In this document: positions 26,874 through 35,306 of the stretch, one piece after another
Layout: each line of letters opens with the position of its first letter
Position numbering within the stretch: position 1 is the first letter of the stretch
Assembly (NCBI GenBank): GCA_903847385.1
Contig: CAINDO010000440.1
Location: 6,129-70,128 of the forward strand
Direction of reading: 5' to 3'
DNA: 64,000 nucleotides
From: an uncultured Myxococcales bacterium
GTDB lineage: Bacteria > Myxococcota_A > Bradymonadia > UBA7976 > UBA1532
The notes under the pieces: model-generated
What the model saw: the letters and a program-made list of their open reading frames with translations, nothing else
The model's database searches: none
What the model was told of the DNA's origin: nothing
Made by a program: the position numbers and the translations under genes

Positions 26874-26942
26874 TTGACCCGGATCAATGCCTGCCGCATA
26901 GAGCTTGAAATCTCCCAAAGCTCATTTGCGCAGGAGCCCATG
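26874..26942 (+). promoter_or_regulatory. Putative sigma70-type promoter (TTGACC, 17-bp spacer, CATAGA) and AGGAG ribosome-binding site for the polyamine operon
   Basis: A low-GC stretch of about 50% GC. TTGACC at 26874-26879, 17-nt spacer, CATAGA at 26897-26902. AGGAG at 26932-26936 lies 4 nt before the ATG at 26940. Confidence 0.4.
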
Positions 26943-27888
26943 CGGCCCGTACTCCAGGTCTTCACGGCGGCCACGCTGCCCGAGCGTCCGGCGCCGTTCC
27001 AGGCGCTCGACCGACTCGCGGCGGTCGAGCTCGGCGACGAGCTGCCCCCGGAGACCTACGCCGCGATCCAGGCCACGCTCTGGACGCACCCCTTCTCTCG
27101 CACGGCCCTCGAGGCCTGGCTGCTCGAGGTCGAGGGGGGAGCCCGTCGCCATGTTCGAAGCCTTCCGCGTGACCGCCCGTCGCCGCGTCTTGCCGGATGC
27201 GCCCGTCGAGCACCTGCAGGCGATGGTGCTCGGCAGCGGCTTCGTGCCCCGGGGCCTGCGCCGGGCCGGCCACGGGCGCACGCTGGCGGATGCCGTGTGC
27301 GACCACCACGTCGCCCAGGGCGCCGCGCTCGCCTACGGGCTCGTCGAGGCGTCGCTCAAGGTCTACAGCCACGCCGACCAGACGCGCCCCGTCGTCGAGC
27401 GGTGGTTCCCCGCCGCCCCGGACGCGGCCGCCGATTCGACGGCGGAGGGCCTGGAGCCCCTGTTCGACCTCGCGGGCTGGACGCCGCCGCCGCTGCTCGG
27501 GACGGTGGACGTGCTCCTCACGGCCGAGATGCTCGACTGGCGCCTGGAGCGGGTCGCGCTGGAGCGCCCGCAGGACCGCGCCCGCCCCATCGGCGCGCGC
27601 CTCGGGGCCGACTTCATCGTCTGGTCCACGGAGGCCGACGACGACGCCCTGGAGATCCTGCACCTGCGCGCCGACGACGCGCGGGTGCCCGCCCTGATCG
27701 CCGCCGCCTGCCGCGAGGCCGCCGCCCGCGGATTGAAGGCCGCAAAAATCTGGGAATCGACCAGGCTGGATACGTGTTTGCCCCCGGGCGCTCGCCGAAC
27801 GCTCGACGCGGTTTTCGCAGTGGGTCGCTACCTCCCCGGCATCGACGCCGAGGGGTGGCTGGACCTTCAGATCGGCCATATTTTCTAG
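26940..27888 (+). CDS. Hypothetical protein (possibly GNAT-like), first gene of the polyamine operon; interrupted by a +1 frameshift in a G6 run at 27134-27139
   Basis: Protein-like composition runs in frame A from 26940 to about 27139 (..EAWLLEVEGG), then continues in frame B (EPVAMFEAFRVTARR...IGHIF, stop at 27888). Frame A beyond the G-run is Arg-rich junk. If one G is removed the two parts join as ..LEVEGEPVAMFEAF.. Confidence 0.5.
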
Positions 27889-27923
27889 CGCGCACGGTTT
27901 CGTGCATTCCATTCGAGGACTCG

Positions 27924-33508: not shown

Positions 33509-34383
33509 GCCCTGTCCCTGCCCAGTGGTGGCACGAGAGCACCTATGGTTCGGGCATCACGCAGGCGCTCGACCTGACGACGCGGCACGAGGAGCGGTCG
33601 GCGTTCCAGGAGATCGGCGTGTACGATCACCCGGTGTACGGCAGCGTGCTGACACTCGATGGCACCGTGCAGATCTCGCAGGCGGACGACTTCATCTACC
33701 ACGAGATGGCCGCCCACGTGCCGCTGCTCGGGCGGGCCTGGCAGGACGCGCGGGTGCTGATCATCGGCGGCGGCGACGGCGGCATGCTGCGCGAGGTGCT
33801 GCGTCACGACTTCGTGCGCGAGGTCGTGATGGTGGAGATCGACCGGCGGGTCATCGACCTCTCGAACGAACACATCGGCCTGCAGGGCGATTACGCCGAT
33901 CCGCGCGTGACCCTCATCATCGACGACGCCGTGCGCTACGTGGCCGACACCGCCCGGAGCGACAAACGCTTCGACGTGGTGCTGATCGACGCCACGGACT
34001 CCACCGGGCCGACCAAGGTGCTGCTCACGCGGCCGTTCTATCACGACCTGCACACGCTGCTGTCGCCCGGGGGGGCGGTCATCGACTCCGACATCCTGCT
34101 CGTCGGCAACGACGGCGGGCGTCTGTCGCGCGACCCCTGCGACTTCAGCATCTACGACATCATCCGGTCGGGTCTGTTCGCGCGCGTCGAGGGTTACGGC
34201 GCGCGGGTGCCCCTGTATCCGGGCGGGCCCTTCGCGTTCTTTCTGTACAGCAAGGACGGCCACAGCTTTCGCACGCCCGTGCGGTCGTGGCACGGCCGCT
34301 ACTACGACCCCGAGCTGCACGCCGCGGCATTCGCGCTGCCGACCTGGTGGCGCAACCTGATCGCCGTGGGGCCGAACGCGTGA
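33505..34383 (+). CDS. speE: Spermidine synthase / polyamine aminopropyltransferase
   Basis: FQEIGVYDHPVYGSVLTLDGTVQISQADDFIYHEMAAHVPLL..VLIIGGGDGGMLREVLRH..VVMVEIDRRVI is a canonical SpeE signature. ATGA overlap with the upstream gene. Confidence 0.8.
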   Translation: MSPVPAQWWHESTYGSGITQALDLTTRHEERSAFQEIGVYDHPVYGSVLTLDGTVQISQADDFIYHEMAAHVPLLGRAWQDARVLIIGGGDGGMLREVLRHDFVREVVMVEIDRRVIDLSNEHIGLQGDYADPRVTLIIDDAVRYVADTARSDKRFDVVLIDATDSTGPTKVLLTRPFYHDLHTLLSPGGAVIDSDILLVGNDGGRLSRDPCDFSIYDIIRSGLFARVEGYGARVPLYPGGPFAFFLYSKDGHSFRTPVRSWHGRYYDPELHAAAFALPTWWRNLIAVGPNA

Positions 34384-35306
34384 CCCCCGCGGGGACCAGC
34401 GCGCTGACCGTGGACCCCGAGGACGTCGCCCCCCGCGAGCGGGCCCGCGTCGAGGAGATCCTGCGCACGGTCACCCTCGCCGAGGTCCGCGACCCCGACG
34501 CGCCGGTGTTCCACGAGGTCTTCGACCTGCTCGACGCGTTCTTCGGGCCGAGCGGGGAGATGGAGTCGCGCGAGGCGCTCGCCGACTTCGTGCGGGCGCG
34601 GCGCCTGGACTACGCGCCCGGGCTGTCGGGCACGTACCATCTGGTCGGCGCGTGGCATGCGGGCGCGCTGGTGGCCGCGCGCGACTGCTACGTGGACGTC
34701 GACGCCGCGACCGGGGTGTGTGTCGTGGCCCTGGCCCATGTGTTCGTGGCGCCGGCGTGGCGCCGCACCGGGCTGGCGAGCGCCCTGCGTGCGCTGCCCT
34801 CGACGCTGGCGCGCGCGGTGGTCACGGAGCGGTTCGGCGCGCCGCTGCCCACGCTCGTCGTGGCCGAGATGGAGCCGGCGGACGCGACCGACCCGGACAC
34901 GCTGCTGCGCCTGTGCGCTTACGGGCGCAGCGGTTTCGCCGTCCTCGACCCCCGGCGGCTGCCGTACTCGCAGCCCGAGTTCCGCGACCTGCCGGACGCG
35001 CACCACACGGGCATCCCGCTGCTGATGCTGCTGCGCGCGACGCCGGCCTTCGCCGACGGCGTGCCCGTCTCGATGGCCGAGTCGCTGCCGCGGCTGTTCT
35101 ATGCCGCGCACCGGTTGCACACGCCCGCGGCGCGGGTCGACCCGTCCGAGGCGCACGTGCTCGGCGTGCTGCGGCAAAGCGACGCCCCCGTGTCCCTGCT
35201 GCCGCTGCCGGAGTCGCTCGACGCCCCGGAGCGGCTCACGCCCCTTCGACGCGAGGTCGTGCTGCCCCTGTATCCGCCGGGGCTCCGCGGCCCCGAACAC
35301 GCCTGA
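34380..35306 (+). CDS. GNAT-family N-acetyltransferase, putative polyamine acetyltransferase
   Basis: A GNAT motif-A-like VFVAPAWRRTGLASALRA. The GTG start overlaps the speE stop as GTGA. Confidence 0.5.
   Translation: MTPAGTSALTVDPEDVAPRERARVEEILRTVTLAEVRDPDAPVFHEVFDLLDAFFGPSGEMESREALADFVRARRLDYAPGLSGTYHLVGAWHAGALVAARDCYVDVDAATGVCVVALAHVFVAPAWRRTGLASALRALPSTLARAVVTERFGAPLPTLVVAEMEPADATDPDTLLRLCAYGRSGFAVLDPRRLPYSQPEFRDLPDAHHTGIPLLMLLRATPAFADGVPVSMAESLPRLFYAAHRLHTPAARVDPSEAHVLGVLRQSDAPVSLLPLPESLDAPERLTPLRREVVLPLYPPGLRGPEHA

Follow-up and report, generated by a model that had tools for sequence, protein, structure and literature searches.

The stretch of DNA considered here, hereafter the window, is 64,000 nucleotides (nt) of a contig from an uncultured Myxococcales bacterium (CAINDO010000440.1), and it contains at positions 26940–35306 an unbroken run of eight plus-strand genes (G1–G8) covering 8.4 kb. 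We think it very probable that this operon makes or modifies a polyamine. The genes of the window were modeled by combining a frame plot of G+C at third codon positions (GC3) with translation of open reading frames (ORFs), because at ~70% G+C the raw ORF lists contain many spurious frames; the domains of G1–G8 were identified by searches against Pfam and NCBIfam. These searches reproduced all domain calls of an initial annotation of this DNA, and the profile matches place the products it had called SpeE-like, DUF43/BpsA-like and AdoMetDC (S-adenosylmethionine decarboxylase)-like in those very families, not among generic methyltransferases. The features of the locus are:

26829–26939 (111 nt), plus strand: spacer between the resident PLD gene and G1, with GC below that of its flanks; possible leader or promoter region
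26940–27888, plus strand: G1, predicted Eis-like tandem GNAT, frameshifted
27924–28928, plus strand: G2, fusion of an AdoMetDC domain to a 2-oxoglutarate (2OG) dioxygenase domain
27924–28277, plus strand: G2 N-domain, predicted class 1b AdoMetDC (AdoMet_dc, TIGR03330, motif spacing)
28278–28928, plus strand: G2 C-domain, lysyl-hydroxylase-like Fe(II)/2OG dioxygenase, paralogue 1 (OGFOD2-like/2OG-FeII_Oxy_3)
28955–30001, plus strand: G3, BpsA_C (DUF43) aminopropyltransferase-like protein with a GDFD motif (PF01861, E 2.8e-66)
29998–31284, plus strand: G4, polytopic membrane protein, a putative MFS/TLC-like transporter with ~10–12 hydrophobic segments and a central loop
31293–31919, plus strand: G5, stand-alone lysyl-hydroxylase-like Fe(II)/2OG dioxygenase, paralogue 2 (OGFOD2-like/2OG-FeII_Oxy_3)
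31958–33508, plus strand: G6, double SpeE protein
31958–32740, plus strand: G6 N-domain, SpeE group A (Spermine_synt_N and Spermine_synth)
32741–33508, plus strand: G6 C-domain, SpeE group B, degenerate and pseudoenzyme-like (Ala at the Asp158 position, in NARAD)
33505–34383, plus strand: G7, SpeE group C (Spermine_synth, 7.6e-35)
34380–35306, plus strand: G8, GNAT-fold protein

The tight packing initially described for these genes was recovered to the nucleotide: from G1 to G8 the junction spacings are 35, 26, -4, 8, 38, -4 and -4 nt, the three overlaps being GTGA at 29998, ATGA at 33505 and GTGA at 34380, and several of the starts are preceded by GGAG/GAGGA-like Shine-Dalgarno sequences. This packing suggests that G1–G8 form a single transcription unit. 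The region in front of G1, which had been called a promoter-like leader, reduces to a spacer of lower GC: a scan of it for the sigma-70 consensus gave no match, no Rfam family matched it, its fold z-score of -1.9 is unremarkable, and terminator-like matches in the region are at chance level (five found versus 3.9 expected). As these scans gave nothing exceeding chance, a promoter, terminator or riboswitch in the leader was rejected. In a close relative (locus L003) the stop of the PLD gene lies only 58 nt from the fusion gene, so the operon might be co-transcribed with the upstream PLD gene.

Enzymes and membrane protein of the operon

Both domains of the decarboxylase-oxygenase fusion initially proposed for G2 were recovered. 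Its N-terminal domain is matched by AdoMet_dc (PF02675; E 1.4e-38, 132 bits with a cut-off of 25) and TIGR03330 (135.8 bits with a cut-off of 75.65), and its residues IAES63HLAIH68TWPE...FTC83G have the Ser/His/Cys spacing of the processing and catalytic residues S63, H68 and C83 defined for the T. maritima AdoMetDC (PMC10407285). By these features it is a class 1b AdoMetDC and the predicted source of decarboxylated S-adenosylmethionine (dcSAM). That it acts on S-adenosylmethionine (SAM), and not on arginine or ornithine, receives indirect support from three observations: the G1–G8 cluster has no other dcSAM source, the domain is 53–57% identical to the AdoMetDC domain of AdoMetDC-SpeE fusions, and it has decayed where a separate AdoMetDC::BpsA fusion is present.

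The C-terminal domain of G2 retains the HxD...H iron ligands and the 2OG-binding Arg (LHNDAE, SHEH, GRRY). The stand-alone G5 aligns across the entire catalytic domain of LH3 (E 1.4e-22), with H141, D143, H190 and R200 falling on H667, D669, H719 and R729 of that enzyme. A profile of the family matches mimivirus L230 at 1.6e-28 and human LH3 at 8e-26. Judged from these alignments, both oxygenases of the operon are homologous to procollagen lysyl hydroxylase (PLOD/LH3, L230), and their Fe and 2OG ligands are intact. The initial description of the second oxygenase as P4H-like (prolyl 4-hydroxylase-like) is therefore abandoned, since lysyl hydroxylases match these oxygenases at E 1e-28 to 1e-22 and prolyl hydroxylases only at E ~0.01. 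No glycosyltransferase (GT) domain is found by Pfam in G2 or G5, and their genomic context points to free amines.

Three products are of aminopropyltransferase type. G3 matches the solved BpsA structures from Thermococcus kodakarensis (Tk-BpsA, 5xnc; 9e-47) and Thermus thermophilus (Tt-BpsA, 6j28; 9e-44), and its ELYIDDEAW aligns with ELYDDEES of Tk-BpsA, the acidic C-terminal cluster that carries the aminopropyl group. The GDDD motif of BpsA (Gly157-Asp158-Asp159-Asp160) is reported to be essential for the enzyme, its Asp159 and Asp160 holding the amine of the dcSAM aminopropyl group in position (PMC12979288). In G3 and in its cluster-linked orthologues from loci L004, L006, L007, L008 and L009 (listed below), GDFD takes its place (Asp159 to Phe), with Asp160, the DP, E and Y residues and the acidic C-terminal ELYxDDE cluster being kept; the protein P0110 has GDFD as well. 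Hence the DUF43/BpsA-like assignment holds at the level of the family, but without the canonical motif G3 cannot be counted as a canonical BpsA, and the branched-chain synthesis that had been proposed is not established, given GDFD where the characterized BpsA enzymes have GDDD.

The N-domain of G6 carries GGGDG and an Asp pair in DLTD that align with E. coli SpeE (D158/D161 for the pair); G7 keeps GGGDG and DATD, has E. coli SpeE (3o4f, 1.3e-46) as its closest solved relative and scores 224 bits against NF002010, under the equivalog cut-off of 260. Both would thus be SpeE-type aminopropyltransferases with their catalytic residues kept. The C-domain of G6, as judged from its residues, is catalytically degenerate, and its group B orthologues have also departed from the active-site pattern: Asp158 is replaced by Glu and Asp161 lost in L004, L006 lacks Asp158 and has lost GGGDG, and L007 and L009 no longer have Asp161. 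A degenerate group B unit is always fused or adjacent to an active SpeE, as an A-B protein in the window and a B-C protein in L006, L007 and L009, with the genes separate in L004; a 566-aa Spermine_synth protein of L023 is assigned as a further B-C fusion by size and position. The double-domain SpeE-like protein of the initial annotation is accordingly there, as two Spermine_synth stretches, but its second half is degenerate, and the three aminopropyl-transfer enzymes it counted belong to the expected families without being equivalent, in view of this degenerate domain and the GDFD of G3.

The outermost genes encode candidate acyltransferases. G1 is split into pieces of 70 and 245 aa by one extra G in GAGGGGGGAG at ~27128–27134, frame 0 extending to ~27149 and frame 1 starting at 27151. 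The run has seven G in the window versus six in two near-identical metagenome contigs (L001 and L002, with one substitution relative to the window in 4857 nt), which encode an intact 315-aa G1; the extra G is either an error in assembling this homopolymer or a mutation that inactivated G1 very recently in the source population. Since sequence searches of G1 and G8 against solved structures (PDB) gave no match, assigning their folds required structure prediction. The AlphaFold2 (AF2) model of G1 (pLDDT 82) finds as its best folds the tandem GNATs 4my3 and 2hv2 and M. tuberculosis Eis (E 1e-8 to 1e-6), and its Pfam matches are weak (GNAT_LYC1-like, Acetyltransf_9). What had been listed as a frameshifted unknown is indeed frameshifted, but its modeled fold makes it a predicted Eis-like tandem-GNAT acyltransferase, so the version of the cluster in the window would have two acyltransferases. 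The GNAT call made for G8 is upheld by a weak Pfam match and by its AF2 model (pLDDT 95.7), which combines a GNAT fold with an extra C-terminal domain and resembles most closely the aminoglycoside N-acetyltransferases AAC(3)-Ia/Ib (E ~1e-5), with PaiA also among the listed folds. Sequence searches for membership of G1 or G8 in the characterized SpeG, PaiA, AAC and Eis families yielded only sub-threshold Pfam matches and no NCBIfam match.

The two families differ in breadth. That of G1 numbers only 11 protein clusters among 5.8 billion proteins; for eight of these the listed longest-contig sizes equal those of fusion, BpsA or G8 clusters, and co-location with the operon genes was seen directly at three loci (L001, L006 and L023). 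The G8 family has 93 clusters, few with an organism name and those mostly Myxococcota/Myxococcales metagenome-assembled genomes (MAGs), and weak GNAT matches in Pfam are found for 11 of 44 members. G8 overlaps or follows a polyamine gene in the window, L003 and L022 and follows the stand-alone oxygenase in L006, and has no such neighbor in L019.

G4 has no Pfam match even at E<=1. Homologues with 30–43% identity occur in L004, L006, L007 and L009; for L004 and L007 the homology covers the N-terminal part of proteins with MFS_1/TLC and HEAT (and cNMP) domains, on account of which G4 is classed as MFS/TLC-like. A 421-aa protein of L023, also lacking Pfam matches, is in the equivalent position, being placed there by position and not by alignment. 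The embedded transporter of the initial annotation is thus a membrane protein, for which export is one possibility among others.

Recurrence, fusion and loss of the gene set in other genomes

The oxygenase family is rare, with eight loci found in one genome each of 185,579 species, and clustering at 90% identity gives ~24 clusters of the AdoMetDC::oxygenase fusion. When 1.84 billion representatives were scanned exhaustively with HMMER for the G5 family, 20 matches were returned at E<=1e-30 and 308 at E<=1e-10; among the weaker matches listed, of which a few were checked, most are C-terminal domains of 400–1000-aa proteins, a PLOD-like architecture. Relatives of the operon were found at the following loci ("fusion" being AdoMetDC::oxygenase and "oxygenase 2" the stand-alone type):

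L004/L005/L010, Holophagales MAG: SpeE-A, amine oxidase, SpeE-B, SpeE-C, fusion, GDFD-BpsA, oxygenase 2, DUF5916 and APH
L006, Myxococcota-like metagenome contig: homologues of all of G1–G8 and an APH kinase, in another gene order
L023, Myxococcales MAG: the 566-aa Spermine_synth protein, G1, fusion, APH, and the 421-aa protein at the G4 position
L007, metagenome contig: SpeE B-C, BpsA::APH, oxygenase 2, G4::HEAT::cNMP, fusion, alkaline phosphatase
L008, metagenome contig: AdoMetDC::BpsA fusion with APH, and the oxygenase fusion
L009, MAG labelled Rhodanobacteraceae: SpeE B-C, GDFD-BpsA, G4, oxygenase 2 and a saccharopine-dehydrogenase-family gene

In L004, an alkaline phosphatase, a cNMP-binding protein and a G4-like MFS/TLC/HEAT protein are also nearby, and the amine oxidase, which stands among the SpeE genes, is a flavin enzyme. 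In L023, oxygenase 2 lies a few genes away together with a 312-aa gene whose length and contig identify it as P0210, a homologue of G8. The core set, comprising the AdoMetDC::oxygenase fusion, the second oxygenase, the GDFD-BpsA, three SpeE types and the MFS/TLC-like protein, recurs in Myxococcota, in the Holophagales MAG and at other metagenome loci. The survey of neighborhoods that the initial annotation had suggested thus finds a gene set conserved across phyla: three or more further bacterial lineages, reaching into a second phylum and beyond it, have held it together; because it recurs there with different orders and fusions, the arrangement goes beyond chance.

Within this set, the three SpeE types (A, B and C) are orthologous groups, and G5 is orthologous to the stand-alone copies in L004, L006, L007 and L009. 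The identities of the oxygenases to the G2 C-domain and to G5 are 60/54% versus 46/55% in L004, 74/46% versus 51/77% in L006 and 61/44% versus 44/53% in L007, consistent with the two paralogues being two orthologous groups that have been retained together. Relatives outside the lineage of the window also have an APH-family kinase, which is present in five related loci; two of the five, L004 and L007, have an alkaline phosphatase in addition. In the 64-kb window, APH kinase, alkaline phosphatase, cNMP-binding and amine-oxidase partners are absent save for a negligible 55-aa match.

The modules are further linked by independent "Rosetta-stone" fusions; beside AdoMetDC::lysyl-hydroxylase-like itself, these are AdoMetDC::BpsA_C in L008 and P0110, BpsA_C::lysyl-hydroxylase (LH)-like in P0270, BpsA_C::APH in L007, SpeE A-B in the window and SpeE B-C in L006, L007 and L009, and O-methyltransferase::LH-like in P0034. 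P0270 (933 aa) combines BpsA_C (E 6.5e-31) with a C-terminal LH-like oxygenase, has the motif GDDN and looks eukaryote-like in composition.

The oxygenase pair is also present without AdoMetDC nearby, and more distant members of the family have other partners. An 859-kb metagenome contig (L018:10001-11556) has an LH-like oxygenase followed directly by a Spermine_synth gene; most of the neighboring genes there lack a Pfam match, and HSP70 and NFACT-R genes lie nearby. In a cultured isolate, Noviherbaspirillum sp. 1P10PC (L011:9881-13549; NZ_JBDFLX010000001.1), a single LH-like oxygenase is located directly upstream of an OKR_DC_1 Orn/Lys/Arg decarboxylase and a class III aminotransferase, which together might constitute a hydroxy-diamine module; it sits just downstream of spoT and is the only culturable handle found on the oxygenase family. 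In two Elusimicrobiota MAGs (L014:6999-9588 and L016:8772-11362), pairs of LH-like paralogues are found beside a membrane protein of the ceramidase family, and the surroundings show no polyamine genes, a hint that distant members of the family act on other amino-alcohol or amine substrates. Further distant members have a GT25 glycosyltransferase or a C39 peptidase as fusion partner.

Two relatives display complementary patterns of decay. L003 comes from a close relative: its PLD, lipoprotein and GFO proteins are 96–97% identical to those of the window and the flanking DNA 87–91% identical. It is devoid of the equivalents of 26833–27910 (G1) and 28472–34341 (from within the oxygenase domain of G2, whose C-terminal part is missing, to G7), and of the cluster it retains only the AdoMetDC::(dead oxygenase) fusion and G8 (L003:6699-7667). 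The AdoMetDC domain of this fusion is intact (89% identity), and the oxygenase domain keeps none of its three Fe ligands, both the HxD and the distal His being gone. The cluster is therefore a presence/absence polymorphism between close relatives. A simple recent deletion as the origin of L003 is disfavored, as the oxygenase remnant (~49% amino-acid identity) is far more diverged than the flanks, so that the two haplotypes seem old. The converse is seen in P0021 (L008:10001-11017) and P0018, where a dead AdoMetDC domain that has lost its processing Ser, His and Cys is joined to an oxygenase domain that is still intact; L008 encodes a separate AdoMet_dc::BpsA_C fusion 4 kb upstream of P0021. 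Both patterns are as expected if the oxygenase needs the transferases, the fused decarboxylase is the dcSAM source and the cluster is an accessory island.

Away from the operon, the coding strand at 36300–37400 of the window is ambiguous: GC3 phasing fits a plus-strand Pro/Leu-rich ORF at 36572–37213 with LPLPLP repeats, and gene calling in the equivalent region of the syntenic L003 gave a minus-strand gene of 359 aa. Short repeats (50–270 nt, 70–93% identity) at 53860–56300 and 40400–40820 match each other and also a MopE-like gene of L003 with a Cu-binding motif; they probably correspond to Cys-rich motif units that recur within two large secreted proteins, encoded on the minus strand at 39379–42072 and 52785–56819. 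A minus-strand ORF of 1337 aa at 8868–12881, with N-terminal HTH_3/HTH_31 and no other recognized domain, was missed by the GC3-based caller, implying a composition unlike that of its neighbors.

Proposed pathway and competing explanations

On balance, we lean toward the view that G1–G8 form an accessory operon whose products use dcSAM to lengthen a di- or triamine of the cell, C-hydroxylate it and N-acylate it, giving a higher polyamine. What the sequences show are the domain identities, the catalytic residues kept or lost, the packing of the operon and the conservation and fusion of its modules in other genomes; what the pathway starts from and how its steps follow one another, which carbon becomes hydroxylated, what donates the acyl group, which way transport runs and what the finished molecule looks like are inferred. 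First, the AdoMetDC domain of G2 would supply dcSAM. Second, the G6 N-domain, G7 and G3, the last with a donor-amine site altered by its GDFD, would add aminopropyl units to the di- or triamine, the degenerate G6 C-domain probably scaffolding the SpeE-type enzymes as a partner subunit. Third, the G2 C-domain and G5, acting non-redundantly, would hydroxylate a methylene next to an amine-bearing carbon. Lysyl hydroxylase hydroxylates C5 of lysine, and by analogy the product would contain 1,2-amino-alcohol units; because LH domains are dimers, the two might also act as a heterodimer tethered to the decarboxylase. Fourth, G1 and G8, whose GNAT folds match those of polycation-modifying enzymes, would N-acylate the product, and fifth, G4 would move the product or a precursor across the membrane.

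Several observations weigh against this proposal. For no member is a product, transcript or enzyme activity known; the source is a metagenome contig, and no promoter or terminator delimits the transcription unit in our scans of the region. AdoMetDC homologues can neofunctionalize into Arg or Orn decarboxylases (SpeDA/SpeDC; PMC10407285), and on sequence scores alone G2 could be one of these. With the GDDD test failed, the donor or acceptor of G3 may differ from that of BpsA. The characterized relatives of the G2 and G5 oxygenases act on peptidyl lysine, not free amines, and the family is not exclusively polyamine-linked: the GT25 and C39 fusions and the ceramidase-family neighbors in Elusimicrobiota rule out a universal linkage of this kind. 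G1 is frameshifted in the window, and G8 belongs to a wider Myxococcota family not always found beside polyamine genes and, since it is kept in L003, may be resident at this locus with no part in the pathway. What ties the oxygenase family to free amines is the decarboxylase and aminotransferase beside it in L011 and the Spermine_synth gene in L018.

An alternative that we hold to be unlikely has the oxygenases act on the donor (dcSAM, SAM or methylthioadenosine), the aminopropyl group being hydroxylated before its transfer, or cleave C-N bonds oxidatively via alpha-hydroxylation and so remodel chain lengths; a polyamine oxidase remodels chains in the thermospermine-to-norspermidine route. The fusion of one oxygenase to the dcSAM-making enzyme would suit hydroxylation of the donor, but the fusion also exists with a dead AdoMetDC, and the oxygenase pair occurs where no AdoMetDC is nearby. 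An altered donor would likewise be compatible with the loss of Asp159 in G3 and its orthologues. As for cleavage, the chemistry of lysyl hydroxylase targets the carbon beta, not alpha, to nitrogen. The flavin amine oxidase among the Holophagales SpeE genes does make remodeling part of at least one version of the system, but it coexists in L004 with both oxygenases, so that they are not simple substitutes for each other.

Less likely still, to our mind, is a modification of lysine in a protein or peptide akin to silaffin or hypusine chemistry, with the lysine hydroxylated and its epsilon-amine aminopropylated by the SpeE/BpsA-like enzymes. This would accord with the sole characterized relatives of the oxygenases being peptidyl-lysine 5-hydroxylases and with the fusion of distant members to a C39 peptidase or GT25, which fit peptide or protein substrates; phosphorylated hydroxylysine occurs in silaffins, and the APH kinases of related clusters could make it. 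No candidate substrate protein or precursor peptide is, however, conserved across the clusters, in which the conserved partners are small-molecule enzymes and a transporter; the contexts in L011 (a basic amino-acid decarboxylase and an aminotransferase) and L018 (SpeE) speak for free amines, and the rarity of the family, at eight loci in genomes of 185,579 species, argues against a housekeeping protein target.

Ordinary housekeeping synthesis of spermidine or spermine, with the oxygenases, GNATs and membrane protein as unrelated neighbors, has in its favor that SpeD and SpeE operons are common, that G7 resembles E. coli SpeE and that a relative without the rest of the cluster has G8 and the flanking genes as residents, but it is largely refuted and very improbable in view of the fusion of oxygenases to AdoMetDC or BpsA_C in independent lineages, the conservation of the whole set across phyla in different gene orders, the decay of the oxygenase domain where the transferases are absent and the occurrence of the cluster as a presence/absence island and not a core locus.

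If the proposed hydroxylated higher polyamine is indeed made, its natural-product class can be given a further, distinctly speculative reading, which we offer as one that may well not hold: a C-hydroxylated, aminopropyl-built polyamine serving as a "pseudo-aminoglycoside" toxin or antibiotic, made by the lysyl-hydroxylase-like oxygenases from free polyamines, masked in its producer and sent out of the cell through the MFS/TLC-like protein. What suggests a toxic product, and self-protection against it, is that the accessory enzymes found with the core (APH, alkaline phosphatase, Eis-like and AAC(3)-like) are all of families that mask polycationic amino-alcohols of the aminoglycoside type. The Myxococcota versions might then mask the product by N-acetylation with the Eis-like G1 and AAC(3)-like G8, and the Holophagales and other versions by O-phosphorylation and dephosphorylation with the APH kinase and alkaline phosphatase.

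Polyamine biosynthesis is considered well mapped, hence the surprise of an operon that joins aminopropyltransferases to 2OG oxygenases, and the initial annotation's view that a pathway of this composition is undescribed holds in so far as searchable full-text literature contains none. The full-text search, which did not extend to subscription-only literature, turned up no AdoMetDC-oxygenase fusion, no polyamine-linked bacterial LH-like enzyme and no cluster of this kind, nor did the searchable literature yield a pathway joining the two enzyme types; on the function of OGFOD2 it offers only genetic-association and expression studies. The proposed pathway, if true, would represent a new branch of polyamine metabolism in which C-hydroxylated higher polyamines arise from dcSAM, would give a first biochemical handle on OGFOD2/PLOD-like oxygenases outside collagen biology and would imply that BpsA_C enzymes are not confined to the branched polyamines of thermophiles. 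Were the toxin reading true, a small-molecule function would for the first time be assigned to the PLOD/OGFOD2-like oxygenase family, and a BpsA_C-family enzyme would have its first function beyond those thermophile polyamines. The product may be bioactive, as hydroxylated polyamines can be potent toxins, pavettamine being an example, and the G6 C-domain offers a natural example of a pseudo-SpeE partner domain. The system is rare, conserved and tractable, being at a compact 8.4 kb directly testable by heterologous expression, and its predicted chemistry would surprise a polyamine specialist.

Comparison with known systems

The closest likeness of the G3 module is to BpsA of T. kodakarensis and T. 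thermophilus (EC 2.5.1.128). G3 shares with it the BpsA_C domain (E 1e-47 to 1e-44 to the solved BpsA structures) and likewise has Asp160, further residues of the pocket and the acidic carrier cluster at its C-terminus, and both are set alongside SpeE-type enzymes and a dcSAM source. They differ in that BpsA has GDDD where G3 and its cluster-linked orthologues have GDFD, that the known systems lack an oxygenase, GNAT or kinase, and that branched-chain polyamines are predominantly a matter of thermophile hosts, whereas the G3 clusters come from Myxococcota and Acidobacteriota MAGs.

With SpeD/SpeE modules the operon shares a class 1b AdoMetDC feeding dcSAM to adjacent SpeE-fold transferases, and in both a fusion couples steps. 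Yet in the fused forms of these modules, the AdoMetDC-aminopropyltransferase fusions of Pelagibacter among them, the decarboxylase is joined to a transferase, whereas the AdoMetDC of G2 is fused to a dioxygenase; the window further has three SpeE orthologous groups, one of them degenerate. AdoMetDC-aminopropyltransferase fusions are also said to have been described, by Michael in 2011, for the long-chain-polyamine systems of diatoms; a further difference is that the cluster of the window has no N-methyltransferase.

The lysyl hydroxylases (LH3/PLOD3 and mimivirus L230) have the same double-stranded beta-helix domain, with the H-x-D...H and 2OG-binding Arg aligned, and the keeping together of two paralogues here fits the dimeric nature of LH domains. 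In contrast to those enzymes, the G2 C-domain and G5 are bacterial, minimal at ~210 aa with no glycosyltransferase domain attached, and either joined to polyamine enzymes or encoded beside them; they presumably act on a free polyamine and not on collagen lysine.

Two bacterial routes to hydroxylated amines provide functional parallels. Pavettamine, a toxic C-hydroxylated polyamine and as such a chemical precedent for the proposed product, is made by the pavABC genes of Paraburkholderia and Caballeronia, in which PavA is a Rieske::alanine-racemase-like::Lys/Orn-decarboxylase-like fusion, PavB is a DUF3326 protein and PavC is JmjC-like, of a cupin family often involved in hydroxylation (bioRxiv 10.64898/2026.06.12.731819). 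Both systems have in common a bacterial C-hydroxylated polyamine, proposed in our case, and a decarboxylase::oxygenase fusion with a second cupin-type enzyme proposed to hydroxylate. The enzymes are, however, non-homologous, and pavettamine is built of C5 units without dcSAM or aminopropyltransferases. Searches of G1–G8 with Pfam and NCBIfam found none of the PavA, PavB and PavC families, and with its enzymes not homologous the operon is ruled out as a pavettamine pathway. The putrescine 2-hydroxylase of Betaproteobacteria, reportedly described by Li and colleagues in ACS Chem Biol in 2016, similarly puts a hydroxyl beta to a polyamine amine. It is, however, an enzyme with Rieske-type non-haem iron, acts on a diamine and is unlinked to aminopropyltransferases, and the operon of the window does not use this Rieske route.

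Finally, producers of aminoglycosides protect themselves with APH kinases, the alkaline-phosphatase-like StrK and acetyltransferases of the AAC and Eis types. These accessory families are shared, with APH and, in two relatives, alkaline phosphatase in the related clusters and Eis-like and AAC(3)-like GNATs in the window. The likeness is one of family and fold only: the cluster has no sugar or cyclitol genes, and its scaffold would be a polyamine. Taken together, these comparisons suggest that the system works like the aminopropylation pathway of SpeD, SpeE and BpsA with an added layer of hydroxylation.

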